A DNA stretch of 40,524 nucleotides from Nemertoderma westbladi (lineage: Eukaryota > Animalia > Xenacoelomorpha): contig JAUCBJ010004152.1 of assembly GCA_032718475.1 (NCBI GenBank), forward strand, positions 1 to 40,524, in the 5' to 3' direction. The translations under genes were made by a program, and so were the position numbers. Of the stretch, positions 6,325 through 33,556 are shown in pieces; position 1 is the first letter of the stretch, and each line of letters starts with the position of its first letter. The notes below the pieces were generated by a model. It worked only from the letters and a program-made list of their open reading frames with translations, had not been told where the DNA came from and made no database searches.

Positions 6325-6605
6325 TCTAATCTAATCTAATCTAATCTAATCTAATCTAATCTAATCTAATCTAATCTAATCTAATCTAATCTAATCTAAT
6401 CTAATCTAATCTAATCTAATCTAATCTAATCTAATCTAATCTAATCTAATCTAATCTAATCTAATCTAATCTAATCTAATCTAATCTAATCTAATCTAAT
6501 CTAATCTAATCTAATCTAATCTAATCTAATCTAATCTAATCTAATCTAATCTAATCTAATCTAATCTAATCTAATCTAATCTAATCTAATCTAATCTAAT
6601 CTAAT
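6325..6605. repeat. (CTAAT)n microsatellite
   Basis: Perfect pentanucleotide array of ~280 bp. Confidence 0.98.
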
Positions 6606-7261: not shown

Positions 7262-7270
7262 CTCCCCCCA
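7262..7270 (-). promoter_or_regulatory. Polypurine tract of element A
   Basis: Minus strand reads TGGGGGGAG immediately before the LTR start TGTTAGC. Confidence 0.8.
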
Positions 7271-7859
7271 TGCTATCTTCCCGGTGAGAAGATAGCATCC
7301 AACTAAAGTGCGCTACAATTCCGCTGGATCCCGATCTAGCATCGGGTGTGGGGTGGGTTATTTTCTTTCTCGGAGTCGGCTTTCCAGGCCGCTCCCTGTG
7401 GGTATGATGTCACTACCCTCTGGCGTCTCGTGTCGGGCCGATCGTGCGCTTCTCTCACACAATTTTTGTTTCCCCAACACTCTCACCACTCTACTCCAAC
7501 TCTCGCATACCCCCGGACCTCCTCGTCCCACACTCTTCCTCTCACTTCTCCTCCCCCACACTTGAATTGCGCCCACGCTCTCTTCGCACTCCGTACTATT
7601 ACTCCATCCCTCCTTGACTACCTTATCCCTTCTGACGAATCTCACCCCCCCCCCCCCCTCCGTGCCGTCGCACTCAGGAAATGTGAAATCATCTGGCGTC
7701 TTGTCCCTAGTGCCATAGTCACTTAGCCCCCCAGTCCCAGTAGCTAATTGAGAAAGGTTGTATGACTATAGTACTTACACCACTATCTCCGCACTCCGCA
7801 CTATCACCTCTCCACTCTCTTGTCACTCCCTAAGGCTTTAATCTCTAATGCTACCCCTG

Positions 7860-9480: not shown

Positions 9481-9515
9481 CCTCCTCTATTATTTAATTA
9501 TTTTCTTATTTTTAA

Positions 9516-12500: not shown

Positions 12501-13132
12501 GCATCGACTAAGTATGGCCCTACGTACACTACGCTAGGTTCCATACCCCCACATTCCCATAGTTCAATCAGTTCGTTGACAACTCCCCTCGCCCTCTCCT
12601 CGGCTAGTTCTCCCTGCCCAGAACGCACTAGGTAATCAAAGTATCTGTTCGACTCACCTAGTCGTCTCCTCAGTCTCACCTCGTCTATCTTCGCCCCTCC
12701 TTTGGCCTCTCTCAGTTGCTCCCGGGTCGCGGCGTAGGCCCGTCGAAGTCGATCAGAAATCCCAACGTCCTCGTCGCCGACCTCTCCTCCATCTCTCTGG
12801 GTCCGACGTCGTACCGACGGCCCCACCGTCGCCGTTCCGGTGGACCGTTCGTCGTCCTCGGCCTGTGGCTGGCCGGCGACATCGGTGCGTCGACCCTCGC
12901 TCCGCGTCGACTCGTCTTCCTCTTCTCCTCCCGACTCGATTTCTCTTTGTAGACGACCCCCCACATCTTGGTTCGCCGGGTCGCTCGTTATCGACGTGGC
13001 GTCAACGTGCGTCGACGTGGTCGGCGTAGCATCGACCGGCGTCGTGGGTTCGTATCGTCTCGCCGTGGCCTCGCGGATCGTTAGATCGTCGTCCGGGGTC
13101 CGCGGCGGTGTCGTTCCTTTCTCTCGACTCAT
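9516..13132 (-). pseudogene. Gag-like polypeptide of element A (~1200 codons, broken by frameshifts at simple-sequence runs)
   Basis: Overlapping minus ORFs 12038-13132, 11826-12092, 11371-11628, 10366-11283 and 9516-10001 can be joined. Coiled-coil N-terminal part. C-terminal CQLH..THKTRSC..R..LCHRCVVKGHRSGEC resembles tandem BEL/Pao Gag knuckles. Confidence 0.7.
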
Positions 13133-13262
13133 CTTCGTCTTTGGTGTCTGGCAGCCACAGTCTGTCTGTTGGTTGGATCCAGTTCTATCACTGTCAGACT
13201 GTCAGGGCAGCTGCTAGGATTCTATCTCTGTCAGGGCAGCTGGGCGGATCTGATTCTATCAC

Positions 13263-13809
13263 TGTGACGGGATCTACGGATCCCGGTTTATCCGTTGGGT
13301 TTTCTATCTACGCGTCCCCGCCGTGTGTGAAAGGTAAAAGAGTTCTGATGTTCGGTTATATGTATAAGGTATAATATAGTTGATATATAGGCTATAGTAT
13401 AGTATGGCACAGTTACCGGTAGATAAGTATGATGGCGGTAGCGGACGGTGATAGAAGTCACCGTTCCACCCTACTGAACTAACTGAGTAAACTGAATGAA
13501 TGATTGCTGTACAGGTAATATGTACTGCACGGGTTTGGCCGTTACAGTACTTAGTCGATGCTGTCCCCCCATTGGCTAATATCCCTGTTGGCACCCTTTG
13601 CCCCCCTCTGAAGTGCTTCCCTTCGCCCTTGCTGTTCTCTCTTGGTTAGGGGTTTGGCCCCTGACCCTTATTGTGTGTGTTTCCTTTGGGGCCTATTGTC
13701 CCCGTTTACTGGGGTGACACGAGGTTGATTGGTAATCAACCTCGTGCTCCCAATATTGCTTTATGGCTCACTCTATGGGTTTGTGTTAGCGGAATTGGAT
13801 AAGCTAACA
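13263..13809 (-). repeat. 5' LTR of element A
   Basis: Direct repeat of 6716-7261. Confidence 0.95.
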
Positions 13810-14157
13810 CTGGCATAGCATTAGCATTCTTAATATATGTACAATAAATATATATATAATGCAGCTGACTTCAATGCAGCATGCCGTTAGTAAGTAGAAC
13901 TGCAGGGACAGGATACGATACGATACGAAGACTGATTTTCGTATTGCAGTATTTTATTCGTAACGAATTTCGTATCGTATCATAAAAATTGACGTCGTAT
14001 CGTATATTACGAATAAATATTTTTCGTATTTTATAGAATTATATTCCCTAAATGCCGTGGATTTTCAAAATTTTATTTTATTCGAATTAACTTTGTAAAG
14101 ATTGCTTTGAGTTCTCATTAGTATTTGTTCTATCATTTGTACGCCTATCGGTCAAGT

Positions 14158-14244
14158 GGTTCAGTAGCTCAGTCGGTAGAGCGTTGGAAATTATATGTGT
14201 AGTAGGTATTGAGTTCGAATCCTAGTAAGTGCGAATTATTTTTT
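14158..14244 (+). ncRNA. tRNA-like Pol III cassette in the 5' LTR
   Basis: A-box/D-arm TAGCTCAGTCGGTAGAGC, B-box GAGTTCGAATCC, followed by T6. Acceptor and anticodon stems do not pair. Confidence 0.6.
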
Positions 14245-14440
14245 GTGCAGAATTTCAACTCATTTAAATTGACCGCTACAAATTAATTGCATTTGTCTGT
14301 ACCAATGAGACTGTAGTTATTTGATTGTAACCAATGTCGTGCAAGTTATACATTAGCTGGACCAATAGCTATCTTTAAAACCTTGTTAGAACCTATAGAA
14401 CAATCGAGAATTTTCTCGATTGATTGCAGCACAAATTTGG

Positions 14441-14583
14441 TATATAAAGGTGCGATTTGTTCATTAGTTATCTCATTACTATACCATAATATATTCTCTC
14501 AGGTATTCAGTTATCTGATATTTGTTTATTCTGTCATTAGTTTTCAGATTACATTGTATTATAATTATATCTTCTGTAATAAA
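14441..14583 (+). promoter_or_regulatory. Putative LTR TATA box (14441-14448), Inr-like TCATT motifs and polyA signal AATAAA (14578-14583)
   Basis: Motifs occur in the U3-R order expected for an LTR. A 10-bp-stem palindrome at 14401-14422 lies just upstream. Confidence 0.5.
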
Positions 14584-16777
14584 GTCAGAATATTCTCTCA
14601 GCTTTTCTATCTGTTTTACTATGATTCACCACGGTGAACCCAGCTAAGGGACAGGATGGCCAGCTAGAGATCGGGCCGCAGCAATGAACGGGAACATCAC
14701 GGGAATGTAGACAAGAGACAACCCGCAATAACATCTTGAGTTATTCGCCCATCGCCTGAAAGGTTAGACAGCGTTCGACGCCTTGCTACCTAAGTATAAG
14801 ACCAAAAGATCAAAAGGTAGAAGTAGTGACACGCTGTGAGCCTAAAATTACATTTAGGGACTGTACTGTCTTGATTCAGGAAAAAACCACAGTAGACCTT
14901 CACATTCCTACGGGGGGGGAGAGCGCAGGCAGAGACACTAGTACGCAGATAGGACGTAGGCACACCGGTACGAAGCATACAAATTGGTAGGGTGCAGCAA
15001 ACTGTACGCCTAACTCTTGCTAAGTACAGGTGCGTGTGCGACTATTTGCAGTACAACGGTGTCCATTGCATTAGAACTTGTAGGCTAGGAGGGTTGTTGT
15101 GTTTTCACCTGAATTGAGATTGTACCGTTCAGGCGGTAGGGCAGTTTACAGCTAGGCGCAAATAAATTGAGGCTATTAGGGATACTAACATCTACCGTGT
15201 CCCCGCCAACGCCCTAATAGGAAGTTACCCAGACTACCTGGGTGACTAAAATTCTAGATAGGACGCCAGGATAGCTATTAGTAACAGTACGCCTACAGTA
15301 GTAAACTAACACATCTCTTCTTAGTATCAGGGACCTGGTACCTAAAATTGCCGAATTCTGGGCGTAGCATTAACCTTATGCCTGAATTTGAGTCCTGGAA
15401 ATACGCAAGAGGGGAAGGAACCTTATCATTCGTGAGTATTGGACCTACAAGTTATAAAATTAGAATATTCGTAAAATGCACACCGTACCCAGTAATTATA
15501 TATGTGAAGGAGCAAAACTGCTTTTGACTGTTTAGAATTGACACACGCGCGTTAGAAATTATTTACACCTCAAAATATATAAAATTAACTTTCGTCCGTA
15601 CTGTGTTTTGCCCGCTAGTTAGACATCTCCAAATCTCTGCCTCTGTACTTAGCTAGCGTCTCTTTGCCCAACCATATAAATCACACCGCGGCAAAGTGTA
15701 CGAGCTTCTTAGTCCGTCAGTGAGTCAGCCTGATTTTAGGATTCGCTGCGCGGGATTTTTGTTTCATCGAAGTTTGTCTGCTCGTAGACTGTTTTCTGCC
15801 TCACCGGTTATAAGAGATCGATACTGCAATATATTCGCTTACTTAGAGTTTACTGTTTTGGTGAGAAGGTCGGATTTATGATTTGATTTACAAACTTTAC
15901 TGTAAGATATTGCAGGTATTGTTACCGTCTCTTCCATATAGTAGGAATAGGCGTATCTCTTCCAATAGTAGGAATGTGTTTTACTGAACTACGGTTCGGT
16001 AGGACTAAAGTTATTTGAAAATTTTGTATTTTGAGGTAAAAATTTGTATTTGATTAGCTAAGTGCTAATTTTTTGAAATAAAATTTGATTTGAACCGCGT
16101 GTAAAATATTTTTGGAATTGAATACCGGTGTTTAAAAAGGGTTTAAATGCCATATTGTACCGGTACAAAATTTTCGTAAAGTAAAACCTAACTCTTTTGT
16201 TTTTTCAGGATTCAGAACTCATTTCTAGACTGTAACGGGAGCAAGACCGTGTTTAGCAAGTTTGGGAGATAGATAACTCAACAACTTTGGTTGGGAAAAT
16301 CGCGCTTCGTCCGCAACGTTAAAAACGGAAAGGTTCACGTCCGGTTTGTATCTGGGAATCTGTTTTTCTGGAGAATTATTGGAGTGGGTGAGTTCGAAAA
16401 GTTGCATAAATAAGTTAGGCATTACCGTATTAGTTAAAATTATTGTGGGTTCCACTGTCTCAAGTATTTATGCATTCCGTATGATTTCTTTGTTCATTGC
16501 TGAATTAGTCCGTATTATTGTATTTAATTTACATTTTGATAACGCATATCGTTATCCGATTTATTTGTTATAAAATTGGCCGCTAGGCTAATTTTATTAT
16601 ATACTTATTCCGTGACATTTATTTGCTGTAAAATTGGCCGTTTAGGCTAATTTTATCCATCTGCTATAAAATCGGCCGGTAGGCTAATTTTATATGACTG
16701 TAATTAGTACCGTTTAGATATAAATACGGTAAACTCGATACTTTGACACTCACTTTACTTGACTTACAACTACCGAA

Positions 16778-19700
16778 ATGAGTGACAAACAAGACTATAC
16801 GAAGAACACACCTACCGACTATGACTCGTGTGACGCGGATAAGTCAGCAGCGGAAGAACAACAGGGGAAGACTCGCGAGCCTACCGAACCTACACCGTGT
16901 GCGTCACCAGTACATCCAACGGGAGTACCGGATGCCGTAGTACGAGGCGACGGCAGGACCGAGGACTTTCTAACTGTTCCGCAACCTAGATACAGGGAAA
17001 TGGAGATGGTAAGTTCAGTAGGAAGCCAGGAGAGCGTAGTTAGAAGCGTCGGCGGTTACATGGCGCATATTACCAGGAGTATTGGAGAAGGCCAACGCAT
17101 ATTAGACGAGTTAACCGCTCCGATGTCTCGGTTCGAGTTCTACACTCTACAGGTGAGAGTACAGAGTAAAGTATATAAGTCCGTAGATAACCTAATTGGT
17201 CTACAAGATCTAGCTAGACAGAGACAGGATATGGACACTCAGCTTAGAATCCTCGAGAAACTAATGATCACTAGAGAGAAACTGATTCAGTTTAAGTCGA
17301 CGATTAGGCAGATACAACAGGAACAAGCGGACCAGTTGTTAGGTGAGTCGGTTTCGGACGAATTATTGCAACCCGAGGAAGAACAGGAACTGTACAGGCT
17401 AGATGGACAATTGAAACACCTGACGGATCACTTACGCATGTGCGGCGAGGACGTCGGAGATTGGGAAACCGTGCCGGAGGCTACGAGGGAAACTTCACTC
17501 GCACAAATCGAACTGGCACCGGGAACACTAAATCAATCACTGGTGAGTATTCGCAGCGAAATTGGCGAGGTGAGTATGGCTACGTCAGAAATTGCTCGAC
17601 AACAGCAGCTCTACAGACAACAACAGGAGATGGAGGAACAAACTGAACTGCTAATGGCACAAGCAGCAGTACAAGAAGAGAAACTACGTGTTGCGAATGT
17701 TGCAAGAATCTCTCATCTGCAAGAACAAGCCGAGTTGGAAGCAGCCGAGATGGAAAGATTAGAGTTGGACATTGCACAACAGGCAGCGGCAGCGGCAGCG
17801 GCAGCGTCCGAGTTAGAGCGAAAAAGGTTAGCTTCAGAAGCGAGAACCGAAATGAAAAAACGGCAAATAAAGGCTCAATCAGCTATACGACAAGCGGAGT
17901 TCGAGGCGCAACAACAACAGACGGAACAACGCGAGAAGGAAGTTAAACTTCATTTCGAACTCGGGAAGAAGGCGAGAGAATTAGCCAACGCGAAGGAAGA
18001 TCTGGATCTACAAGCCCGCGATCGATCGATGAGATCTCGTGACGGACATGATTTGGACCAGTTAAAGGTAAGGCACCGTCAAATTCAGGAACGGAAGAAG
18101 GAAGGAAGCGTAGGAGCACCCGGACGGGAACGACAATTAGTAAAGGACTTGTGTCAACGATTCCCACAGGTAACTCCTATGTTTGCACCAGTTACGATTA
18201 AGGAACCTATTTCGATTGCTGGTAGTAGTAATATTTCTCCTATCCATGGTGCGACGGAACACAGGTTTGTTATTCCGGACAAGTTTACACCGCCAAGAGC
18301 AACGTCGTCGCCTATTCCGAAAGTCAAGGTAAGTAACCCGCCGATTACAGATCGTAGTAGTTTGTTGACCAGACCTGCACTACTGACGACTAAACAGGTG
18401 AGTCCACCTTCGACACCAAAACTCGTTACGCACTACACGTACCCAATGACGTTTAGGCCTACAAAGCCTTTGGATTCAAACGCTGTAGTCCGACCACCGG
18501 TTCAGTTTACATCGCAATCTACGACTTCGAGGAAGACTTGTGAGCCTACCGAACAACGGAGACCAGTGGATACGCGACCGTTCAACCAGTTTACATCGCA
18601 ATCTACGACTTCGAGGAAGACTTGTGAGCCTACCGAACAACGGAGACCAGTGGATACGCGACCGTTCAACCAGTTTACATCGCAATCTACGACTTCGAGG
18701 AAGACTTGTGAGCCTACCGAACAACGGAGACCAGTGGATACGCGACCGTTCAACCAGTTTACATCGCAATCTACGACTTCGAGGAAGACTTGTGAGCCTA
18801 CCGAACAACGGAGAACAGTGGATACGCGACCGGTTCAGTTTACATCGCAATCTACGACTTCGAGGAAGACTTGTGAGCCTACCGAACAACGGAGAACAGT
18901 GGATACGCGACCGTTCAACCAGTTTACATCGCAATCTACGACTTCGAGGAAGACTTGTGAGCCTACCGAACAACGGAGACCAGTGGATACGCGACCGTTC
19001 AACCAATTTACATCGCAATCTACGACTTCGAGGAAGACTTGTGAGCCTACCGAACAACGGAGATCAGTGGACGATGTTCCGAAACGAAACGTGAGAATTC
19101 GTACGACGCAACGGACGCGAGCACGTCGACCACCATATCCAGATGATAGTAGTACTTCGAGCGAATCGGATTACCCGAAACGCGAGGTATTTAGAACAGG
19201 GGCGGCCGATGAATATAAACGCGAGCGTTCAGACAACTCCTTTGTAGACAATCCTCCACAGAATACACCAACACAGAAGGCGTTACAACCAACAGACGCA
19301 ATCAGTACACAACAGTTCGCCGACATTCTGCGACCAGTTGTTAACAAGTTGGCTCAGATCGAGGAACGTCTGGAGGAAGGTTACACCGACAGTTCGAGAA
19401 ATTCCGAATTCGAACACAATAGACACCCGAAGGAACCACAAAGACCGGTACCTTCAAAACATACATCGTATCAGGGAAAAGCGCCAAGAAGGGAGAACAT
19501 CAACCAGGTTACCAACCAAGGACGCGAAACTCTGAACGTTGCCGAGGAGATAGCGAAATTCGCAGCCAGACAAGGATTGCCGGTGCAACAACCACCGAAG
19601 TTTTCCGGTAGCTCAAAACACTGGCACACATTCGTAGACTATATCGAATCCCAGATCGCCGTGTGCGCCTTTACATCACTGGAGAAGTTTAATTACCTGC

Positions 19701-22700
19701 TTCAAACGTTGTCAGGAGAACCTAAACGTTTGGCGGAGACCTTCGTTGGTGTACCGGACGCTTTCGAACTAGCGTACGATCGTTTGACCTCGATCTACGG
19801 AGGCACAGTCAGTATGGCCAGGTCAGTAATAGAGGAACTCTGTAAGGGAGGGGCTATCACTAAACCCGTCGACTTATTAAAACTGGCCGACGAGATAAAG
19901 AACGCTATCACTACTTTAAGATCCATTGGACAACTCGACTACGGGAATACCCCTACAGTCCTATTAAAGATCATAGGACGACTCCACCATCGACTTCGTC
20001 GGGAGTGGAGAAAGATCGAATACCAGCGGGAAGAGCGGGGTGGATTCTTAAAACTAGAGGATGTGTACCTTTTGATATCCAGGGAAGCAGTTGTAGAAAC
20101 ACGATCCAACTACACTGACCAGCACATCGTAGCAGAAGGGATCACCTTGCCATCCTCCAACCGACAAAAACCCCAGACAACATCCACCAAGACGGCCACT
20201 TACGCCACATCGACGGAAACCCGACAATTCTCGGACGGAAGTAGGGTATCTGCGCCCATTGGGACAAAACAGACGAGACAACAACTTAGTACCGACTTCA
20301 GCGGCTGCCAATACTGCGAGCATTTAGGCAAGCGGTATATCGGTCACAAGTTGCGAAGTTGTCGACAGTTTCGCGAGTTGAACTCGGAAGAACGACGGCT
20401 GCAAATACGGCCATTGGACTCTTGTTGGCGGTGTACGCGACACGGACACGTCCGTAAAGATTGCCCAAATACCGACACTTGTCCATCCTGTGGACGCAAC
20501 CACGACGGTCTGCTCCACACAGACAGCCACACGCCGACAAAACGCTTCGCCAGGGAACACCCGGAAGCAGCAGCGAGATGTGATGCGGCCTACAGAAAAC
20601 GAGAATCGAAAACGACTCCAACCTTCGTGACCCATATTGAGGATTGCTTCTCAGAACAATCCGGATCGTCGGACGAAGAATCAGAAGACGACGACGTATA
20701 TTCGGATGGAGATGAACAGCCATCGATCGCGCTTCTGACTACTGACCAACTAAAGGGATTTAGTGTAATTCCGATTAAGGTTACTGGCACAAAGGGGAGT
20801 AAGAGAATCTACGCGATTCTAGATTCAGCCTCATCTCACAGTTACGTGGATGAAAAGATAGCTGACGTCGTGACGGATCTCAGACAAGGTAAGCGCGTCA
20901 GTTATACCGTAAGTAGTATGCACGGACAGCGTGCAATACCAGTGACACGAGTCAAGTTGAACTTAGACTCTCTTCTTCCGAAATCGCAACACAGCGAGAG
21001 GGAGAGGTCTTTGTTACCCTTTAAAGATCTAACCTTTGCGGCCACGAAGGACTTTAGTAACCTACTAGGTCCAGTGCCGGAACAATCTCTAGAGGACCGT
21101 AAGTATTTCAGACACCTTGGTGTACCCGAATGTCCTGTCAATTATAGATCGGTAGCCATGCTGATCGGGACAGACCAATTCAACCTACATCAGGTGTGGG
21201 AAACCAGACCATCGGCAGTTGTAGCGGGAAACGCATACGCCTGCAGAACGCCGATAGGGTGGTATACTCGAGCGCCTGTGCGCACACTAGACGTAAGTGA
21301 CGAGGAAGACGATGTACAAAGTACATGTAGTTTATTAACTACAAATTCAATTCATTCCTTCTCACACGACGTGAACCATACTACACTACAGTCGACAAAA
21401 CGTGACAGATGTGTGACTAGTATGATAAGTCACAAGGAGCAGCTAATTCACCAGGTGCAGAAATCGATACAACATTGGCCTCCGTTATACGACAACAAGT
21501 CTAACACCATCCCTAAGGACGCGGAAATCAAGAAACCAAAAAAGGGGAAGGCAAAGAAAAAGACAACGGCGGCAAAACTCAAGAAAAAACCGAAGGCGAA
21601 ATGGAAAGATATAACTTCAAAGGTCAAGAGAGGAAGACTTGCGAGCCTTTCTACACCAGACATATCGCCAGACGGTCAACCAGACACGTTACTAGACGGT
21701 CAATCAGACATTCTACCAGACATTAGTAACGCATTGACAAACAGTAAAGCCGCAGTTTCTCTGTTGGAGCGGCCTTCTATTGACAAACAACCAGATACGT
21801 TACCAGACGTATCGCCAGACACATTACTAGACAGTCGACTAGACACTAGTAACGTACTGACAAATAGTGAAGCCGCAGTTTCCCTATTGGAGCGGCCTTG
21901 TATTGACAAACTACCAATTTTGACACACTTGAGCAACCATAAGCACGGTGAAACCTCATGTATTACAGATGTGGGTAGTACCTACGCTAATGTAAATACA
22001 GGTGTTACTCTGCGCTCAAGAGACATACCGAACTTGCAACCTACGGTGAGACCTGGGATTAATGTCGGCAGAAAAATAAGTTTACCGAAACCTGCTGACC
22101 CCATAGAGTTCAAACCACCATTAACGATCGACTTACAAAGTACCGACAATCAAGGTAAGAAGACGAAGAAGGACAAATTACTTGTAGACCCGGACGGATC
22201 AACAGTCAACAAGGGAATACTTACCGGCGGACCCGTGGGCCCTTCTAGTAAATCAAAACCTTCCAAAATCTCCATTGACTTACCTGATGACGTCACAAAT
22301 ACTCACGTCGACCGGATTGTAAACTTAACAGACTCTTGGTCAAACGCTTGCCGAAAGTTAGCGTGGATTGTACGTTTTGTACAATACGTTAAAGGCAAAC
22401 GTGACTTTACACGTCGACTTACATTGGCTGAGATTGACAGGTGTGAAATTAAATTAATTCGCCATTACCAACTGCGATATTTCGCACGCGAATTCACATC
22501 TATAAATCAAGGCCTACCAATCAAGTCGTCACCGATACTGAGTTGGAGTCCGATTATTTATAATGGCTTAATTTGTCATAAATCTCGGCTTCAAAACATT
22601 GACTTTAACACAAACTTTAGATACCCAATAATAATACCGCAACACCACGAACTACAACGTGCAATGATACTGGACGCACATTTACATCTGAAACACGCTG

Positions 22701-23815
22701 GAAGACACCACTGTCTTTCCTACTTACGTACAAGATTTGTATTGATTAGACCCAGTAAAGCGTTAAGTTCAGTGACACGTACGTGTATTATTTGTAAAAA
22801 GGTACATTCTAGAATAGGTACCCAAGAAATGAGTGAATTACCACAAGCACGACTTCAAGCATTCAGACCACCTTTTACAGAGACTGGAATTGATTGCTTT
22901 GGTCCCATACATACGAAACGTGGACGTATACTAGTAAAACGCTGGGGACTGATTTTCACATGTATGTCCAGTAGGGCAGTTCACATTGAACGTGTGATGG
23001 ATCTTTCCACCAACGCGTTTATACTAGCACTGCGGCGATTTATCGCTAGACGCGGACTAGTAAAATGCTTGTACTCAGACCAAGGGACAAACTTTGTTGG
23101 TGCTCGGAATGAGATTGCTAGAGCCTTTAAGAAATTAGATCATGATCAAATCTCGAACGAACTACAACCTCACAAGATTGTTTGGAAGTTTAATCCTCCA
23201 GATAGTCCATGGAGAGGCGGAGTCTGGGAGAGATTGATTAGATCTATAAAGACGGCAATGGCAAAAGTCATTCCAGTAAACCACATATTGACAGACGACC
23301 AACTGACAACATTGTTTGTTGAAATCGAGGCAATACTAAATACTAGACCAATAGTATTAGTACCCGATGACAAACAATCTCAATTTGCTTTAACACCGGC
23401 ACACCTGCTAATGCAGGCACCGACCACTTTGACGCCGATTTCTATTCCAATAGAAAGCGATAGCTACGGTAGAAAAGCGTGGAAAATCACGCAACTACTG
23501 GCTAACAAATTCTGGGAAATATGGCAAAACCATTATTTGCCCTCTATTTCTGCCAGAACAAACTGGTACAATAACACCCGCGCATTAAAGCCGGGAGATC
23601 ACGTGCTGTTAGCAGAAGTGAATCTAAAAAGACGCTTCTGGATAACAGGTGTAATTTTAGCCACACATCCATCTATGGATGGAGTGACAAGAACTGTGAC
23701 GGTACGGACAATTGACGGTCGTACAGTAGACAGACCGACTCAACGTCTCGTACTTCTTGAAGAGACTCGTAACGAGTCTGGAGACTACAAATCTCCAACT
23801 AATATTAGTAAATAA
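16778..23815 (+). CDS. BEL/Pao Gag-protease-integrase polyprotein (2345 aa) with no RT/RNase H
   Basis: Gag capsid-like PKFSG..W..F..EKFNYLLQTLSGEP, three Cys/His knuckles, aspartic protease AILDSAS, integrase HHCC (H..HAG..CIIC), DDE core (IDCFGP, SDQGTNF, WERLI) and BEL-type C-terminus (FWEIWQNHYL..W.TGVI..HPSMDGVTRTV). Confidence 0.93.
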   Translation: MSDKQDYTKNTPTDYDSCDADKSAAEEQQGKTREPTEPTPCASPVHPTGVPDAVVRGDGRTEDFLTVPQPRYREMEMVSSVGSQESVVRSVGGYMAHITRSIGEGQRILDELTAPMSRFEFYTLQVRVQSKVYKSVDNLIGLQDLARQRQDMDTQLRILEKLMITREKLIQFKSTIRQIQQEQADQLLGESVSDELLQPEEEQELYRLDGQLKHLTDHLRMCGEDVGDWETVPEATRETSLAQIELAPGTLNQSLVSIRSEIGEVSMATSEIARQQQLYRQQQEMEEQTELLMAQAAVQEEKLRVANVARISHLQEQAELEAAEMERLELDIAQQAAAAAAAASELERKRLASEARTEMKKRQIKAQSAIRQAEFEAQQQQTEQREKEVKLHFELGKKARELANAKEDLDLQARDRSMRSRDGHDLDQLKVRHRQIQERKKEGSVGAPGRERQLVKDLCQRFPQVTPMFAPVTIKEPISIAGSSNISPIHGATEHRFVIPDKFTPPRATSSPIPKVKVSNPPITDRSSLLTRPALLTTKQVSPPSTPKLVTHYTYPMTFRPTKPLDSNAVVRPPVQFTSQSTTSRKTCEPTEQRRPVDTRPFNQFTSQSTTSRKTCEPTEQRRPVDTRPFNQFTSQSTTSRKTCEPTEQRRPVDTRPFNQFTSQSTTSRKTCEPTEQRRTVDTRPVQFTSQSTTSRKTCEPTEQRRTVDTRPFNQFTSQSTTSRKTCEPTEQRRPVDTRPFNQFTSQSTTSRKTCEPTEQRRSVDDVPKRNVRIRTTQRTRARRPPYPDDSSTSSESDYPKREVFRTGAADEYKRERSDNSFVDNPPQNTPTQKALQPTDAISTQQFADILRPVVNKLAQIEERLEEGYTDSSRNSEFEHNRHPKEPQRPVPSKHTSYQGKAPRRENINQVTNQGRETLNVAEEIAKFAARQGLPVQQPPKFSGSSKHWHTFVDYIESQIAVCAFTSLEKFNYLLQTLSGEPKRLAETFVGVPDAFELAYDRLTSIYGGTVSMARSVIEELCKGGAITKPVDLLKLADEIKNAITTLRSIGQLDYGNTPTVLLKIIGRLHHRLRREWRKIEYQREERGGFLKLEDVYLLISREAVVETRSNYTDQHIVAEGITLPSSNRQKPQTTSTKTATYATSTETRQFSDGSRVSAPIGTKQTRQQLSTDFSGCQYCEHLGKRYIGHKLRSCRQFRELNSEERRLQIRPLDSCWRCTRHGHVRKDCPNTDTCPSCGRNHDGLLHTDSHTPTKRFAREHPEAAARCDAAYRKRESKTTPTFVTHIEDCFSEQSGSSDEESEDDDVYSDGDEQPSIALLTTDQLKGFSVIPIKVTGTKGSKRIYAILDSASSHSYVDEKIADVVTDLRQGKRVSYTVSSMHGQRAIPVTRVKLNLDSLLPKSQHSERERSLLPFKDLTFAATKDFSNLLGPVPEQSLEDRKYFRHLGVPECPVNYRSVAMLIGTDQFNLHQVWETRPSAVVAGNAYACRTPIGWYTRAPVRTLDVSDEEDDVQSTCSLLTTNSIHSFSHDVNHTTLQSTKRDRCVTSMISHKEQLIHQVQKSIQHWPPLYDNKSNTIPKDAEIKKPKKGKAKKKTTAAKLKKKPKAKWKDITSKVKRGRLASLSTPDISPDGQPDTLLDGQSDILPDISNALTNSKAAVSLLERPSIDKQPDTLPDVSPDTLLDSRLDTSNVLTNSEAAVSLLERPCIDKLPILTHLSNHKHGETSCITDVGSTYANVNTGVTLRSRDIPNLQPTVRPGINVGRKISLPKPADPIEFKPPLTIDLQSTDNQGKKTKKDKLLVDPDGSTVNKGILTGGPVGPSSKSKPSKISIDLPDDVTNTHVDRIVNLTDSWSNACRKLAWIVRFVQYVKGKRDFTRRLTLAEIDRCEIKLIRHYQLRYFAREFTSINQGLPIKSSPILSWSPIIYNGLICHKSRLQNIDFNTNFRYPIIIPQHHELQRAMILDAHLHLKHAGRHHCLSYLRTRFVLIRPSKALSSVTRTCIICKKVHSRIGTQEMSELPQARLQAFRPPFTETGIDCFGPIHTKRGRILVKRWGLIFTCMSSRAVHIERVMDLSTNAFILALRRFIARRGLVKCLYSDQGTNFVGARNEIARAFKKLDHDQISNELQPHKIVWKFNPPDSPWRGGVWERLIRSIKTAMAKVIPVNHILTDDQLTTLFVEIEAILNTRPIVLVPDDKQSQFALTPAHLLMQAPTTLTPISIPIESDSYGRKAWKITQLLANKFWEIWQNHYLPSISARTNWYNNTRALKPGDHVLLAEVNLKRRFWITGVILATHPSMDGVTRTVTVRTIDGRTVDRPTQRLVLLEETRNESGDYKSPTNISK
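18503..19071 (+). repeat. 84-bp (28-aa) in-frame tandem repeat x7 in gag
   Basis: QFTSQSTTSRKTCEPTEQRRPVDTRPFN repeated. One unit is 81 bp. Confidence 0.97.
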
Positions 23816-24477
23816 TTAGGAGTTTACAAATAGATTTCCACGTACCTGTACACTGTAGTAAGGACAGCGGTAGAATTCCATTGTCTTTATATGTGAACAT
23901 TGAGGGTCCCTTATGTGTCACATAGGAGCGGGATTTGTAGGTATAAGAAATGGAATTCTACTTGGAACTCACAATATTGAGACATTTTCGAAATTTTAGA
24001 CAATCCATTTGGATTTGAAAATTTTTAAAATTTTCTCCAGTAAATAGATTTCAGGGTACAGTCGGGTGGAACTTAAAATTAGAGAAACAAGAGAGGAAGA
24101 CTTGCGAGCCTTTCTTAAAATTGTAATTAAATTTTACACGGTCTTGTTTCAATAAGTTACGTCAATAAATAGACTCCCCTATATTTATTACTAATTCTTG
24201 ACTGCTTATTTTCTGATAATAGTTTGGGATCAAAAAGTGAGTATTTTAGACTCACAGCCAGTTTAGCCCAAATTCGTTTTTTATTTCGGCAAAAAAAAAA
24301 TTTTAGATAAGAAGCAGCGTGTCATTAAAGAAACCTTAGATCTTAGGCTATGGGTAGGAGGTTAGAGCGTTGTCGAAGCCCAAAAGGCAGACGAAACTCT
24401 CACGTCTCCTCACAACTAACTACAAACTCTGTTGTATTCCCTCTAGTAGTAATGATTATGTAACTACACCTCTAATT

Positions 24478-26183
24478 ATGGAGAAAGGGATACAAGGAGA
24501 GCCGAGATGGGGATATGATATCCAAGAGGAAGCGGCAGCTTCATTCGAACGATTTGGAGCAAAAGACTACACTATATTTGGTATAAAGGAATTATCAGAA
24601 AGTACAGCGAAGCTCGCAAAGACAGCAATGCCTTTACTCGAGCAGGATTTAGCATATTTCGAGACGTGTATCTTCGCTGTGCGGGATCTCTTATCGAAAG
24701 ACCATCTATGTTTACATTGTTACCCTATGAAGGAGAACGTATCGTGGAGATTATGGATGAATCACGGCAGACGCGCGCGCCTATCGGTCACCTTGGTGAT
24801 GATTTCGAAGTAACTACTACGATCACTGACGATCCTTTAGAAGAACTTCTTGAGATAGAAAGGAACCTCCCGAAGAAATCTCAGACGGAGATTCGACAAC
24901 TTGAAGCAACAGATGCTATAGTTTGCATACAACCTTCAGAAACCTACCAACCCATAGATCCAGATGATTACGATTATAGTGTGGGAGGAAGCGCTCGACC
25001 GATTGGAGATCTTATATACGAACGAGTGTGGTACCCTGCCAATACGATGTGTAGTAAATGTGGCGTCGCTGGACATCATATGACAAAGTGCAGTGGAAAG
25101 CACATTACTACGACTCAGCTAATCTGTGGATGGTGTGGGGATCAAGGGTCTCATACCTTTTATACTTGCTGGAGATTTATGGCTCAATGTACTTACTGCA
25201 ATATAAAGGGCATCGAGCATCTGAATGCCAACTAAAAGACATACCCTATGAACACGAATCTGTAAAACTCGTGAGAAAATTATTTGATGAGTGGGAAGAT
25301 TTAGCCGACGAACATGTATCGGCACAAAGAAGACGGTTTCCGATGAGGGCGCATCTTGGATTTTGGGCGGTAAATCCCCAGACGATGATGTCGGAAGGAT
25401 ATATCTCCGCTATGCCCCAATATGACGAACTTATTGAGGTTGTCGATATTTTACCCCACGACAGTGGATTCCGAGTAGTGCGCGAGTATCTATTACAAAT
25501 TCACCCGGATAACAAAAACACGTGGAATTTTCAGAAAGTCGTTAATCGCATTACGTATGTATGGTGAATTCGATCGTTTCCGAACTGAAAAGCGGAACAA
25601 AGGAGCTTGGTTAACCGTCGCATGGGCGTACCGAGCCGCGTTTTACCACAAACGTATACGAGCGAGCGTATTCAAGGAAGAGGAGGTCCTAGAGGCGACA
25701 AATATACCAGCCACTCCGGTTGCGCCGTCTGCACGTCACCCTCGGGAGGACGGACAGGGTAGGATCATACGGGTCCAGAAAGTGGGCCAACAATTAAAGA
25801 AAATTATTAATATAGAAGAACGCAAGGGAGCTGAGCCGACCATTCGAGTTACTCGGGATACGGTATCGCTTCCTAGAGAACCAACAGGAGGATCGGGACA
25901 CACCCCAGCTGATGAGAAGGGGGCACAAGCTACTCTTGGGTCTGCGTCGTCCGCTTCTCGCGCGTTCCCAGACGTTCTACCAACTGTAGTGACAACTGAT
26001 CGGTCACGAGGAGTCGGTCGAGGTTTTGGGATGCCAAATAGACGAATTTGCGAGGAAATAGTCGCACCGTCTCTCAACGTCCAAACGAAACCAGTGACTC
26101 GCCCCATTAGTCCCATATCGCGAGCAAAGTCACCTGTGCGCAGTTTTCGAGGACGCGGCAGGGCTCGATCCACTAAGCGATAA
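24478..26183 (+). pseudogene. Accessory ORF2 of element B: triple CCHC zinc-knuckle protein, three frame breaks
   Basis: Overlapping ORFs 24370-24813, 24666-25235, 25058-25567 and 25557-26183. Knuckles CSKCGVAGHHMTKC and CGWCGDQGSHTFYTC, plus CTYCNIKG/HRASEC completed across the frameshift at ~25210. RG-rich basic tail. Confidence 0.75.
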
Positions 26184-26771
26184 AAGGGAGGGCAAGGGTG
26201 GACGGAAGACTCGTGAGCCTTTCTTATGATTTTGTGATTTATTTGAATTTATATTTATATTTGTGTTTATTCCGAACTTATGCAATTTATATTGTTCCGA
26301 ATACTATGCAATTTATATCTTATAAGTAGTATTTGTATTTACAGTGAAATAGAAATTTTCATTTATTTGTATTTGTAATTGTTTGAATTTATGCAATATT
26401 GAAATGCAATAGATTTATATTGGTGAATTTAATTTAGATTTATATTGTACTTACTTAGTAAAGCCTTAAATACGTAAAGTTTGAATTTGTAATTAATTTT
26501 GTATCGAATCATTACGTAGAAAGGAAGTATTGTTTGAAACTTAATTGTAAATATGTAAGTACGCCCTAAGTATTCTATAGTTTGATTGATTATTGGTGAA
26601 AACCGTATATTTTATGCACGATAATATCCTGTTTTCATGGAGCGGTATAGAATTATATTCCCTAAATGCCGTGGATTTTCAAAATTTTATTTTATTCGAA
26701 TTAACTTTGTAAAGATTGCTTTGAGTTCTCATTAGTATTTGTTCTATCATTTGTACGCCTATCGGTCAAGT

Positions 26772-26858
26772 GGTTCAGTAGCTCAGTCGGTAGAGCGTTG
26801 GAAATTATATGTGTAGTAGGTATTGAGTTCGAATCCTAGTAAGTGCGAATTATTTTTT
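26772..26858 (+). ncRNA. tRNA-like Pol III cassette in the 3' LTR
   Basis: Same sequence as 14158-14244. Confidence 0.6.
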
Positions 26859-26941
26859 GTGCAGAATTTCAACTCATTTAAATTGACCGCTACAAATTAA
26901 TTGCATTTGTCTGTACCAATGAGACTGTAGTTATTTGATTG

Positions 26942-27138
26942 AACGCCGACACAAGGGTGGGACAGTAGAGTCAGGAACTCATACCGGTATCATAAACAAT
27001 TTCAAAATCAGTTTGGTTATTTTATATTATTTAATTCCCTTGTATGGTTTAAATTTCCCGCCTTTTGCTCATTTGATAATATAAATTTACTATAGTTTTT
27101 GGTCCTACTGTAAAAAAAAAAAAAAAAAAAAAAAAAAC
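26942..27138 (+). mobile_element. Short polyA-tailed retroposed insertion in the 3' LTR
   Basis: Absent from the 5' LTR. Ends in ~26 A. Flanked by an 11-bp TSD TTATTTGATTG (26931-26941 / 27139-27149). Confidence 0.92.
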
Positions 27139-30037
27139 TTATTTGATTGTAACCAATGTCGTGCAAGTTATACATTAGCTGGACCAATAGCTATCTTTAA
27201 AACCTTGTTAGAACCTATAGAACAATCGAGAATTTTCTCGATTGATTGCAGCACAAATTTGGTATATAAAGGTGCGATTTGTTCATTAGTTATCTCATTA
27301 CTATACCATAATATATTCTCTCAGGTATTCAGTTATCTGATATTTGTTTATTCTGTCATTAGTTTTCAGATTACATTGTATTATAATTATATCTTCTGTA
27401 ATAAAGTCAGAATATTCTCTCAGCTTTTCTATCTGTTTTACTATGATTCACCACGGTGAACCCAGCTAAGGGACAGGATGGCCAGCTAGAGATCGGGCCG
27501 CAGCAATGAACGGGAACATCACGGGAATGTAGACAAGAGACAACCCGCAATAACATCTTGAGTTATTCGCCCATCGCCTGAAAGGTTAGACAGCGTTCGA
27601 CGCCTTGCTACCTAAGTATAAGACCAAAAGATCAAAAGGTAGAAGTAGTGACACGCTGTGAGCCTAAAATTACATCTTATGGACTGTACTGTCTTGATTC
27701 AGGAAAAAACCACAGTAGACCTTCACATTCCTACGGGGGGGGAGAGCGCAGGCAGAGACACTAGTACGCAGATAGGACGTAGGCACACCGGTACGAAGCA
27801 TACAAATTGGTAGGGTGCAGCAAACTGTACGCCTAACTCTTGCTAAGTACAGGTGCGTGTGCGACTATTTGCAGTACAACGGTGTCCATTGCATTAGAAC
27901 TTGTAGGCTAGGAGGGTTGTTGTGTTTTCACCTGAATTGAGATTGTACCGTTCAGGCGGTAGGGCAGTTTACAGCTAGGCGCAAATAAATTGAGGCTATT
28001 AGGGATACTAACATCTACCGTGTCCCCGCCAACGCCCTAATAGGAAGTTACCCAGACTACCTGGGTGACTAAAATTCTAGATAGGACGCCAGGATAGCTA
28101 TTAGTAACAGTACGCCTACAGTAGTAAACTAACACATCTCTTCTTAGTATCAGGGACCTGGTACCTAAAATTGCCGAATTCTGGGCGTAGCATTAACCTT
28201 ATGCCTGAATTTGAGTCCTGGAAATACGCAAGAGGGGAAGGAACCTTATCATTCGTGAGTATTGGACCTACAAGTTATAAAATTAGAATATTCGTAAAAT
28301 GCACACCGTACCTAGTAGTTATATATGTGAAGGAGCAAAACTGCTTTTGACTGTTTAGAATTGACACACGCGCGTTAGAAATTATTTACACCTCAAAATA
28401 TATAAAATTAACTTTCGTCCGTACTGTGTTTTGCCCGCTAGTTAGACATCTCCAAATCTCTGCCTCTGTACTTAGCTAGCGTCTCTTTGCCCAACCATAT
28501 AAATCACACCGCGGCAAAGTGTACGAGCTTCTTAGTCCGTCAGTGAGTCAGCCTGATTTTAGGATTCGCTGCGCGGGATTTTTGTTTCATCGAAGTTTGT
28601 CTGCTCGTAGACTGTTTTCTGCCTCACCGGTTATAAGAGATCGATACTGCAATATATTCGCTTACTTAGAGTTTACTGTTTTGGTGAGAAGGTCGGATTT
28701 ATGATTTGATTTACAAACTTTACTGTAAGATATTGCAGGTATTGTTACCGTCTCTTCCATATAGTAGGAATAGGCGTATCTCTTCCAATATATTTCGTAT
28801 GTTATTATTTTGTGTGAATATTAATGTTTTTAACAGTCAAACCAGAGATCTCATCACTTATTTGTTTACATATTTTTTTCTCAAAATTGGTGTATAAATT
28901 AGGTTACAGCTTACAGTTTTACTATGCCAATAAAATGTGTAAGACAGGAGGATTGTTAACACATTTTAATTAACTGTTTTAGAATAATGATAAAAAGACC
29001 ACTGAAATATAATCTAATATCAGTTATAATAAATTAATTAAATTAACTAATCGCGCCTACAAGGCCTTTGATGATATGATAAGGCATTATAGTGGGATAA
29101 TAAAATAAATAAAACATTATAGCTTTATTCTAGCATTAGTTTAACTTCGAAATTGAAGTTTCGAATTTTATTTCATAGGCCCCCCTACATCAAATTCAAA
29201 ATTTTCCGTAATGGCATATGGCATGGTATTATGGTAACGCCTATTATTGGGCCGCGTTGCATAACGTCCTTATGGATGTTGTAGACAGTGGAGAATTGAT
29301 ACAATATTGCCCGCTGTAGTAGCAAGCCAGGGACTGGTAGCAAGCATACTGGTCTGGAACATTTAAATAAAATACTTGCCAATTATATCGATAATTTATA
29401 TGATTTTCTAAGTGTAATAACACAAAAAATGCAATACATGTTTTTTACCAACTCTTAGACAAAATACGATGCGAAAAAATCTATCTTTAGGTATCCTATC
29501 TTTGATTTTTCGTATCGTATCGTATTTTCACAAAATTGCATTCGTATCGTATCGAATCATTAAAAATTGGTTCGTATCGTATCGTATTTCCGTATCGTAT
29601 CGTATCGTATCCTGTCCCTGAGTAGACGTAGTAATATCAAAAGATATTGTAATGTTATGACCGAGACTGACACAAAGTTACTTCAGGAAATAAACTATCT
29701 TTTTGGAGTTTTTATTGCCCTGGCAAATAAAGAAAACAACGAGCGTTTTATATCAATTAATTTCTGCGTCTAGGCCTCTGCCAGACATCCGCCTCGGACC
29801 GAGGAATTGTGGAGCAATTGGGCGATATCAGGGTCAGAGGTGCCTAGCCTATTTATTACGGAATAAGTAAATAAAACACAGATAAATTATAAGACTTCCA
29901 CCATGAACAATTAGTAAAAATTATTTTTTTATATGCTTTTTTGATAACCATAATAATTTACTAAAATAATTTTATGAAATAATATCTATATAACATAAAA
30001 ACCTACCACCAAACCAGAAAAAGTTAACAATTCAGCA

Positions 30038-31578
30038 TTATGGCTTTCGACCATTGAAATCAATCCACATTTCGGAACCTTGAGCCTTGAAGAAGTTGTA
30101 GCTGGGTCCACCACCGGGTGCCCAGAATATCCCCCATTTCGGAAATTGATCGAATTCCGCACTGTATTTCAAACCATTAAGATTACTGTTGTAGGTGTAC
30201 TTATACCACCATCCACCGCTACCGTAGTAATCAACCAGATGTCCAGACCATTCGTCGCGATCATGGTCCGTAGTGCTGAAACTAATCCCATTTAAAGGTT
30301 TCAAGGCATCATGAGCTGGGTATATGATGGGGCTGTTTGGATTTTTCACACCTTTGTAGGAAGTCGGTGTACTGTAGGTGCCGACATGAAGTCTATAATC
30401 GGATCCGGTGACTGTGAAAGTGGAATAGGATGCGCAGTAGTAATATCCATTATAGTTGATCCTAATACCCAACTCAACCGATCCAAAATCATTGGTTAGC
30501 ATCTTTATGTTGTCTAAGCCCAACCAATAACTTCCCCCAGGATTACCGAATCCTTTAACGTATTCATCCCATCTTCGGTCGAAGCTCAATCTATCGGATG
30601 TCAATTGCATCTGTATCGCTACAACATTCCCTTTGCATCTGACCAACTGCTGCCCCAGAGTATTGAGCCGTGCACATATTCCCTTCAGCTTAGGGCATTT
30701 GCTACTCGTATGTTTCTCGCAAACTTGTTCGGAACGTCGAACAAGGTTTTTAGTTGCAGATGCCATGGTTGTATTGGATGCCTGCAATAAAATTACTTTT
30801 ATCAAATTAAAAATATTTGTACCTTTAGAGAAGCCGTTATTATTATTATTGCTCACACAGTCGACACTAATACATATGCCTTTAAAACAATTAATTATTT
30901 AACATCTAATGTGTTGAATATAAATTGTAAGCCTACACTGTGGTTATGGGATTTATTACTACTGTAATAGGCACTATTAAATTGTTTGCAGATAACTGCA
31001 TGTTTATGGGACAAGACATGCAGTCCTCGAGCATTGTCATTCTGTTCATATTGGGCAAATGGTGCACGTGCATGTCCGTCCATCCGTCTGTTTGGTAAAG
31101 TTTAAACTAATGATAATTTATTTTCAATAGATTTTTCCAGTCATAGCTCAAACTCAAATTTCCATTTTGATGCCTTTAGAGATCATGTTCGGTGGTTAGC
31201 TGCTATTCGGTTATAGACTAACGTATTCATAGTTCAACGTGAAACTAACATTGGAGGGAATTCAAAAGTTGTTACACAGCTAGAAGCTTCCTCCAAATTA
31301 GGTATTGAAAAGTAACAAGACCGAATTCGCTGAACACATAACTTTCCTTGCCGAATTCTCAAGTACATTGGTCTTGCGAAAATCGCCAAAGACAAGTTGT
31401 GTCAAGGTTTGTATTCTATTTTTATTGTTTGGATTCCCATGGTTATCTCCAAGATATAACTATAACTAACCTTGTCTTTCCTTTCAACCATTCTCGGTGA
31501 ATCACCGCTGCTCTCTCCAAGGCACCCAGCGGCTAAAAGAGCCACAAAAGCTAAAAGTGAAATAGCCGTCTTTAACAT
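30038..31578 (-). CDS. Secreted fibrinogen-related domain (FReD) protein; exons 31578-31471 and 30781-30038 (~283 aa)
   Basis: Exon 1 encodes a signal peptide (MLKTAISLLAFVALLAAGCLG). Phase-0 GT-AG intron. FReD motifs FDRRWDEYVKGFG, YWLGLDNI, FSTTDHDRD and GGWWY..SNLNG. The exon-1 linkage is inferred. Confidence 0.85.
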
Positions 31579-33046: not shown

Positions 33047-33522
33047 TTACATCACTTGTACTGCCGCTCTACTCTCACTCACTGCCGTACTACGCCGCTC
33101 ATAGAACGGTCTACATTCCTTTTCAACAGTTTCCTTGGATACAACGATCTTGACGACGTCCGACCCTGGTACGTCATACATACTCTGTAGAAGCAAACGT
33201 TCTAGAATAGCTCGTAAGCTACGCGCCCCGGTCCGTGTTACTATGGCTTTATTGGCGACGGCGGCTAAGGCATCGCTAGTGAACTCCAACTCGACCTGGT
33301 CCTGTATTCGGAACAGCATCCGGTACTGGTTGAGAAGGGCGTCCTTGGGTTGGGTGAGTATCGCGACCAGATGGTCCACAGTCAGCGGGTGCAGTGCCAC
33401 CCGTACCGGTAGGCGACCCATAAACTCAGGGATCAACCCGAAGTCTATAAAGTCTTGAGTTTCGGCTTTCTGAAGGAGAAGATCGCGCTGGTCTTTGTCG
33501 TCTAAATAATCCTGAGATCCGC
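33047..33522 (-). CDS. CLPX: Mitochondrial ClpX-like AAA+ ATPase, last coding exon
   Basis: DFIDFGLIPEFMGRLPV..ILTQPKDALLNQY..TGARSLRAILERLLLQSMYDVPGS. AG acceptor at 33524-33523, phase 1. Confidence 0.92.
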
Positions 33523-33556
33523 CTTAAAGTGAAAATAAATTCGATTTTGTAGTAAA

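Follow-up and report, generated by a model that had tools for sequence, protein, structure and literature searches.

Why should one short sequence recur, in coding and non-coding DNA alike, along a single retrotransposon? The question is raised by a 40,524-nt stretch of the Nemertoderma westbladi genome (assembly GCA_032718475.1, contig JAUCBJ010004152.1; from here on the window). There element B, a long terminal repeat (LTR) retrotransposon of the BEL/Pao type that lacks reverse transcriptase (RT) and RNase H, carries the 17-nt motif GGAAGACTYGYGAGCCT in and around its two open reading frames (ORF1, which encodes Gag, protease and integrase, and ORF2, which encodes a second zinc-knuckle protein; Table 1). 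Judged from its sequence variation, the motif is a signal at the level of nucleic acid, namely a hairpin of a single strand and not a peptide, because diverged copies keep six base pairs through compensatory changes. We give a probability of roughly 50% to the reading that these hairpins serve the packaging or dimerisation of genomic RNA.

All 11 copies listed in an earlier note on this DNA were recovered as exact matches, exclusively on the plus strand, starting at 16866, 18531, 18615, 18699, 18783, 18864, 18948, 19032, 21632, 24095, and 26204. Shuffled sequences contained the motif 0.00 times on average and never held as many copies (0/100), and composition predicts 2e-6 occurrences in the 10.7-kb internal region. 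These copies correspond to five independent loci; seven of them sit in one tandem array. The earlier note had placed those seven in 84-bp repeats, which is correct except that one of the six spacings is 81 nt (the other five are 84 nt), that the array holds 6.8 units, and that it counts as one locus only. The independence of reading frame was borne out as well: the copy at 16866 and those in the repeats are read at offset 1, the copy at 21632 at offset 0, and the copies at 24095 and 26204 are non-coding. A peptide motif was excluded by these two frames, by the two non-coding copies, and by the encoded peptides (KT[RC]EP, RQTRAP, GRLAS, and GGPVG), which are unrelated to each other. Flanking sequence common to different loci amounts to 0-7 nt, and the exact 28-nt identity between 21625-21652 and 24088-24115 was confirmed.

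Alignment of the five loci extended the motif to 20 nt (GGNRGACxYGYGx'GCCYNYC) and revealed a YGYG loop flanked by mirror pairs (0/19 through 7/12). From these loci we built a sequence-only profile; for its null, the internal region was shuffled 1500 times with dinucleotides preserved. Its top new matches on the sense strand were at 24766 (score 20.4, a height seen in 0/1500 shuffles) and at 22226 (score 9.7; a second match reached this value in 3/1500). Both sites keep the six pairs, which the two top shuffle matches did together in 1/1500. The motif described in the earlier note as 17 nt long with 11 copies has 11 exact copies of that length; it is, however, really 20 nt long, and two copies had been missed, bringing the total to 13 copies at 7 loci. 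The relaxed 20-nt pattern matched 13 times, where 0.01 matches would be expected by chance on average. A structure-only scan of both strands of the 40.5 kb (six pairs plus a YGYG loop) returned 14 sites, namely the 13 copies and the mirror of 16866, and a covariance-model scan raised the count no further and placed no copy in an LTR or in element A, the second LTR element of the window.

Pairs 0/19, 1/18, 3/16, 4/15, 6/13, and 7/12 are retained at 7/7 loci. Among these, 0/19, 4/15, and 6/13 are invariant, as are the loop G's, while 3/16 and 7/12 switch solely among Watson-Crick pairs. The mirror positions 1/18, 8/11, and 9/10 alternate just between G-C and G.U, position 5/14 is A.C at every locus, and 2/17 is unconstrained. 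The compensatory changes are found in the two new copies: A-U to G-C at pair 3/16 and U-A to C-G at pair 7/12 in the copy at 22226, and U-A to G-C at pair 7/12 in the copy at 24766. Counting by pairs gave 3 double changes at 2 pairs (1/500 shuffles, with slid controls lower), a figure that is partly circular in that the pattern had been refined on the same rows. These changes support both the cis signal and the stem register of the earlier note. Its 3' arm CTTTC, placed in the right register, is present in 3 of the 11 copies only; the eight gag copies carry CTACC instead, with the register of pairing unchanged. The motif is unlikely to be a plain double-stranded site or a neutral repeat.

Several other candidates were set aside. 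At 21632 and 24095 an alternative register (AGAGAGG/CCUUUCU) is predicted to be the minimum, yet it fails at the other loci. A perfect 8-bp stem in the motif register at 22700-22719, with loop CCAC and located in the integrase zinc-binding region, was at noise level (E 3.9) and was not counted. The motif could also pair with the U5 end, at about -19 kcal/mol and rank 5-30 among 1258 windows, but this signal was too indistinct and was dropped. Internal polypurine primers were ruled out by the copies at 22226 and 24766, which are without a purine run. Decay of methylated CpG as the source of the Y variation was likewise ruled out, since CpG is not depleted (observed/expected ratio 1.20 in element B and 0.90 in the flanks). 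An Rfam scan of 14000-30000 at E<=5 gave one chance match, outside element B.

What might such hairpins do? In the reading that we favor, which draws on analogy with retroviruses and other RNA viruses, the 13 hairpins would be dispersed packaging or dimerisation signals on the genomic RNA, read by the zinc knuckles of Gag. Each 20-nt copy would fold into a weak hairpin with a YGYG loop, and the knuckles would grip the loop G's, with the G entering the knuckle as in retroviral nucleocapsid (NC). Forcing the sense fold carries a predicted cost of 1.2-4.5 kcal/mol, which would be paid by the stabilising effect of protein binding. The loops, self-complementary at 7/7 loci when G.U is counted, could optionally kiss. 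Since the copies at 22226 and 24766 show internal covariation, each stem would find its partner within itself or in the matching copy of a second RNA, and not in other copies. From the flanks common to some loci and from the array we infer that two processes multiplied the motif, namely short-patch copying in the course of reverse transcription and tandem amplification, and extra sites may have been favored by raising avidity for the capsid. RNA of the RT-less element B would need to be packed in particles that also contain an RT-bearing polyprotein. The hairpins would in addition mark unspliced RNA; a spliced ORF2 mRNA would lose 11 of the 13 copies, since these lie upstream of the splice-acceptor-like sites before ORF2.

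Parts of this scheme have precedents in earlier studies. Rous sarcoma virus (RSV) NC binds the G in a UGCG tetraloop, and mutation of the loop abolishes high-affinity NC binding (PMC5035970). The NC of human immunodeficiency virus (HIV) binds two G's of a GGAG loop as well as a labile [UUUU]:[GGAG] helix, and hairpins of murine leukaemia virus (MLV) kiss through two G-C pairs (PMC7599994). For single-stranded RNA (ssRNA) viruses, many weak packaging signals dispersed along the genome have been described (PMC6281560). The capsid protein of a nematode belpaovirus, lacking NC, is described as packaging nucleic acid with no sequence preference (10.64898/2026.03.22.711591), and specificity would therefore be left to NC.

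A number of observations weigh against packaging by Gag. In the same studies, mutation of the RSV tetraloop did not remove Gag selectivity (PMC5035970), and substitution of the HIV loop had little effect on packaging (PMC7599994). In element B, two copies would remain in a spliced ORF2 mRNA, the covariation amounts to 3 double changes in 2 copies, and variation restricted to Y may reflect transition bias (347 of the 444 variable places in sequencing run X1 are transitions). The predicted energies are also unfavorable: the sense-strand register is weak (+0.9 to -2.0 kcal/mol), whereas the antisense minimum, where A.C turns into G.U, lies at -3.9 to -8.3 kcal/mol. With 20-nt flanks the core-pair probability was 0.00-0.20 on the sense strand versus 0.39-1.00 on the antisense strand (10 of the 13 copies), and with longer flanks the sense fold was good at 24095 only. 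Native flanks gave no significant advantage over shuffled ones (mean fraction 0.36 sense and 0.46 antisense; 7 loci, 120 shuffles each), and the sense hairpins of the gag array are predicted to be mostly sequestered, with the loop paired elsewhere. As to kissing, predicted self-dimer energies ranged from -19.7 to -11.2 at 5 loci and were -3.9 and -2.4 at 2 (random 5th percentile -12.7), being strong for CGCG and UGCG loops and weak for UGUG and CGUG. The UGUG dimer of the array, at -3.9 against a random median of -6.3, suggests that kissing is not general.

We nevertheless think it quite likely that the hairpin functions on the sense strand, because positions 1/18, 8/11, and 9/10 show G opposite C or U only, a pattern that keeps a wobble pair on the sense strand but gives mismatches on the antisense strand, and because the sense RNA is an obligatory intermediate whose exposed loop G's would be targets for knuckles. 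A functional hairpin on the opposite strand, be it in an antisense RNA or in minus-strand cDNA, is a possibility that the earlier note leaves aside. It would consist of a CRCR loop on a stem of 5-6 bp, in which the A.C found at every locus on the sense strand becomes an invariant G.U. It is predicted to be the more stable fold at 7/7 loci and to form in context, and the covariation carries no information on strand. We still regard this possibility as improbable: pair 1/18 would then be A.C at 5/7 loci and the alternation of G-C with G.U at 1/18, 8/11, and 9/10 would become meaningless, the fold reaches merely -0.4 to -1.7 kcal/mol as DNA, and the energy model scores any stem containing A.C better on the other strand. 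Somewhat unlikely, but a more serious contender, is the idea that the hairpins mark unspliced RNA as response elements, to be bound by the zinc-knuckle protein of ORF2 or by a factor of the host, and so act in export, stability, or localisation of genomic RNA, much as in Rev/RRE or Cer1 CERV. All structural evidence would fit this equally well, ORF2 encodes CCHC knuckles, splice-acceptor-like sites lie in the 5' untranslated region (UTR) and before ORF2, and export of Cer1 genomic RNA is described as requiring an accessory protein made from a spliced mRNA (PMC10309623). Against it, the motif copies flank ORF2 and even sit inside it, and ORF2 is broken in this recent insertion, although supply in trans would be possible.

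Two further explanations remain. The motif could be a double-stranded DNA site for an element or host protein, as its near-palindromic form, the tandem amplification, and the presence of an accessory ORF might suggest, with a precedent in the anti-silencing VANDAL/VANC system (PMC5735166). A dyad, however, does not require its halves to change jointly, yet 3/3 double changes are compensatory in the Watson-Crick sense; all 7 loci have the same orientation, none lies in the LTR promoter, and CpG is not depleted. CCHC knuckles, moreover, usually bind single strands. We consider such a site very improbable. It is equally hard to believe that the motif is a neutral by-product, a template-switch hotspot that copied itself around element B without selected function. 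This would readily explain the 28 nt common to 21632 and 24095 and the 24 nt common to 16866 and the array, and tandem arrays are frequent in both LTR elements of the window, but the diverged copies keep all pairs by compensatory change while their flanks share just 0-2 nt with others, and the motif persists within coding sequence in two frames. Altogether, packaging or dimerisation signals on the sense RNA remain the reading that we favor.

Table 1. Element B, its 13 hairpin copies, and associated features (positions in the window).
Feature	Position	Strand	Remarks
Element B, BEL/Pao-type LTR retrotransposon without RT-RNase H	14032..28790	+	14.8 kb
5' LTR of element B	14032..15967	+	1936 bp; zero motif copies
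Primer-binding position GTAGGAATGTG	15968..15978	+	not tRNA-type (no TGG); exact complement of LTR 14901-14911 (11 nt)
ORF1	16763..23815	+	2350 aa stop-to-stop; first ATG 16778
Hairpin copy 1, gag start	16866..16885	+	loop CGCG; peptide GKTREPT
In-frame tandem array, hairpin copies 2-8	18503..19071	+	6.8 units of 84 nt; loop TGTG
Putative in-frame RT-RNase H loss site (about 21456), then RNase H end-motif tail QKSIQHWP	21452..21481	+	protein comparison
Hairpin copy 9, RNase H-integrase spacer	21632..21651	+	loop TGCG; other frame (GRLASLS)
Hairpin copy 10 (new)	22226..22245	+	loop CGTG
Hairpin copy 11, non-coding, between ORF1 and ORF2	24095..24114	+	loop TGCG
ORF2 region, CCHC zinc-knuckle protein	24358..26183	+	four overlapping frames in the element B copy
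Hairpin copy 12 (new), within ORF2	24766..24785	+	loop CGCG
Hairpin copy 13, 3' UTR	26204..26223	+	loop CGTG; 20 nt past last ORF2 stop
3' LTR of element B	26646..28790	+	~200-nt poly(A)-tailed insertion inside; zero motif copies

The motif spans 9.4 kb of element B. Its two LTRs are 99.8% identical across 1652 nt and 100% identical across 296 nt; this near-identity, together with a clean 5-bp target-site duplication (TSD; TATTT), indicates that the insertion is recent. The termini are TAT...ATA rather than TG...CA, and the 1.9-kb LTRs are long by BEL/Pao standards. In ORF1 the domain order is Gag with the BEL capsid domain (DUF1759, E 2.5e-11), three zinc knuckles (aa 1182-1256, starting at aa 1182, 1221, and 1240; one of the classic CWxCxxxGHxxxxC form), protease (LDSAS), linker, and integrase (H2C2, core, and DUF5641, the last at E 1.7e-20). 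Among 6653 candidates, 1403 were related to the integrase at E<=1e-20, and the best 120 of these matches showed 34-41% identity to BEL/Pao polyproteins, with DUF5641 in 120/120. Searches with Gag-protease found just 4 related proteins among 4870 candidates (23-24% identity), and the N-terminal 900 aa found 0 among 7989. The ORF2 frame pieces (24358-24813, 24519-25235, 25058-25567, and 25479-26183) hold two whole knuckles and a third that is split by a frame break; Atlas matches to zf-CCHC clusters (up to 0.86) are a lead only.

ORF1 gave zero Pfam matches to RT or Pao RNase H and has no [YF][VL]DD or YxDD; of 124 relatives compared, 115 contain [YF][VM]DD. The end of the RNase H region reads W..GP.[FW]L-x(4-8)-WP in 97/124 relatives (x6 in 95). 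In element B the tail of this end motif is followed by 293 aa until the next conserved block, while the equivalent spacer in relatives has a median of 52 aa (n=17 with both ends placeable). Tail and spacer together point to an in-frame deletion of RT-RNase H, so that element B is, by this comparison, a non-autonomous BEL/Pao deletion derivative. The linker had been described in the earlier note as replacing RT. Because it starts with the RNase H motif tail, it is better explained as an expanded RNase H-integrase spacer, and the suggestion of helper-RT recruitment by the motif is weakened, as the linker carrying two motif copies looks like the native spacer. In sequencing runs X1, X3, and X4, contigs depart from the element B sequence at 21456-21457, one of them by at least 255 letters, and one run-X4 contig enters it at the same place from other sequence; longer and probably RT-bearing copies thus probably have both flanks of the deletion point in common. 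Since the linker with its two copies looks native and longer copies share both flanks, the motif is likely family-wide.

The stretch was found in 5 of the 9 listed sequencing runs, from 4 studies, and many divergent contigs map onto element B, which means that the family has many copies. Contigs of runs X1 and X3 leave the sequence at 26400, cross 18 nt of new spacer, and reach a motif copy, and one run-X5 contig has a motif copy ahead of 26356; some family copies thus hold an extra motif in a duplicated 3'-UTR unit of ~90 nt. The 3' UTR past copy 13 (26227-26400) varies in structure among family copies, with skips, back-joints, and the extra motif-bearing unit, and all length variants begin at 26227 or later, directly after copy 13. 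Substitution places listed near copy 13 (3 in 291 nt, none within the motif) are too few to gauge conservation; in the wider comparison, none of the 40 variable places listed, of 560 in all, falls within a motif. The gag array may amplify an RNA signal rather than a peptide, as had been proposed. Other copies have, in their non-coding 3' UTR, a duplicated unit that carries the motif, which speaks for this, and the predicted sequestration of the array hairpins counters it; array units that are 97% alike cannot reveal selection.

Beyond the family, the 20-nt pattern had 0 matches in viral contigs, and its 26 loci in metagenome contigs (25 with one descriptor hit, 1 with two), none related to element B by tblastn/blastn, were taken as chance. 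No BEL locus was confirmed among 108 pattern matches in viral contigs, and none was found in phages. Motif-compatible peptides were not enriched in the 124 relatives (5 matches versus a shuffled mean of 5.6), so that distant BEL elements gave no sign of the motif in this comparison of low power.

Compared with known systems, the motif resembles parts of several. Like the retroviral packaging signal psi (RSV SL-C with UGCG, HIV-1 with GGAG), it is a short hairpin with tetraloop G's at positions 2 and 4 and a labile purine-rich lower stem; 2/7 loci have exactly UGCG, and element B encodes CCHC knuckles. Psi, however, is one compact region of the 5' leader, whereas element B has 13 copies over 9.4 kb, mostly coding and none in the leader. 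The dispersed signals of ssRNA viruses (TR-like stem-loops of MS2, and also those of picornaviruses and hepatitis B virus; PMC6281560) are likewise many weak stem-loops with a recognition motif in coding RNA, but there the motif is sparse and bound by capsid protein, while element B is an LTR retrotransposon with near-identical, tandem-amplified 20-mers. With the retroviral dimerisation signals (HIV DIS, MLV SL-C/SL-D, and Ty1 PAL1/PAL2) it shares a pseudo-palindromic hairpin and a self-complementary loop with G.U, unlike them having a wobble-rich 4-nt loop and many copies outside the leader. Cer1 CERV and VANDAL/VANC offer the analogy of an accessory element-encoded protein, with tandem-multiplied targets in the case of VANC, although VANC targets are double-stranded DNA motifs of a plant DNA transposon.

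Element B shares with Belpaoviridae the DUF1759 Gag and its three knuckles (10.64898/2026.03.22.711591 counts three among the features of belpaoviruses), protease, DUF5641 integrase (best 41%), a single polyprotein, LTRs, and a 5-bp TSD. It differs in its Pol, which has protease then integrase only instead of the order protease, RT, RNase H, integrase, and in size, with LTRs of 1936 bp and 14.8 kb in total against 0.2-1.2 kb and 4.2-10 kb in the profile of the International Committee on Taxonomy of Viruses (ICTV; PMC8742986). That profile also gives an 18-nt primer-binding site for the 3' end of tRNA-Arg or tRNA-Gly, whereas the LTR of element B is followed by GTAGG and not TGG, an observation made without comparison to a tRNA set; its LTR ends are TA, and a second zinc-knuckle ORF occupies the env position. 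Because RT-RNase H, LTR size, and tRNA primer all deviate, element B as sequenced stands outside regular membership of the Belpaoviridae.

Priming without a tRNA is possible for both LTR elements, neither of which has a primer site of the tRNA type. The complementarity between primer position and LTR (Table 1) has the geometry of Tf1-like self-priming as described in PMC4600332; only a fraction of 0.0015 (element B) or 0.0025 (element A) of internal k-mers has such an LTR complement. In element A the post-LTR bases 13254-13262 are an exact 9-nt complement of the LTR at ~13448-13456 (minus strand), and the primer-site sequence is repeated three times (13180-13262). A caveat for element B is that transcription may start upstream of its primer stretch, as suggested by a TATA box (14441) and an AATAAA (14578); AATAAA also occurs at 15161. 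The LTR end and primer site of element B are locally duplicated (15931-15976), and a stable AT-rich hairpin (-11.4 to -13.8 kcal/mol) is present in three copies at 16572-16705. These precede gag directly, in the 5' leader, where psi or a dimer signal is classically located.

Element A (6716-13809, minus strand) is an apparently gag-only LTR element with BEL-like knuckles (9516-10412), 547-bp LTRs, TG...CA ends, and TSD CTGGC. Multiplied hairpins of three types (3, 8, and 9-11 copies; 8100-9440), unrelated to the motif of element B, occupy its non-coding 3' region, which suggests that hairpin amplification is a habit common to both elements. Both LTRs of element B contain a tRNA-like stretch (~14157-14235 and 26771-26849) with A-box and B-box look-alikes recognised by eye, although ARAGORN found no tRNA; it may be either the remnant of a short interspersed element or a Pol III promoter. 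The insertion confined to the 3' LTR (26942-27138) ends in 26 nt of poly(A) and is accompanied by a target duplication of 11 nt. The surrounding host DNA includes, on the minus strand, a fibrinogen-C exon (30038-30898, E 8e-24), a weak THAP match (881-1564), and an ORF that, by eye, we take to be ClpX-like (33047-33523), as well as 43-bp and 12-bp satellites and a TCTAA microsatellite (36250-40524 and 6325-6605).

We found no earlier report of such a motif in the literature, a weak negative given that subscription journals lay outside the coverage. Replication of BEL/Pao elements is poorly understood according to the ICTV profile (PMC8742986), and selection of RNA by LTR retrotransposons is described as unclear even for Ty1 (PMC8396678). 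The natural compensatory variants of the 20-nt motif form a small, ready substrate for studying the specificity of Gag and ORF2, and should the ORF2 protein or the antisense strand turn out to be responsible, the motif would still be an undescribed cis element. If the packaging reading is true, an LTR retrotransposon would join the ssRNA viruses under the dispersed-signal model, a coding tandem repeat may be selected for its RNA over its peptide, and RNA could be loaded into Gag particles with the motif as a portable tag. More tentatively, and with some doubt on our side, a BEL/Pao lineage may have replaced a single 5' psi with a modular, self-copied 20-nt RNA tag that was tandem-amplified in gag and the 3' UTR, with members competing for capsid by tag number. 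Belpaoviridae would then have a packaging signal defined by sequence, and the element bearing it may also prime without tRNA.

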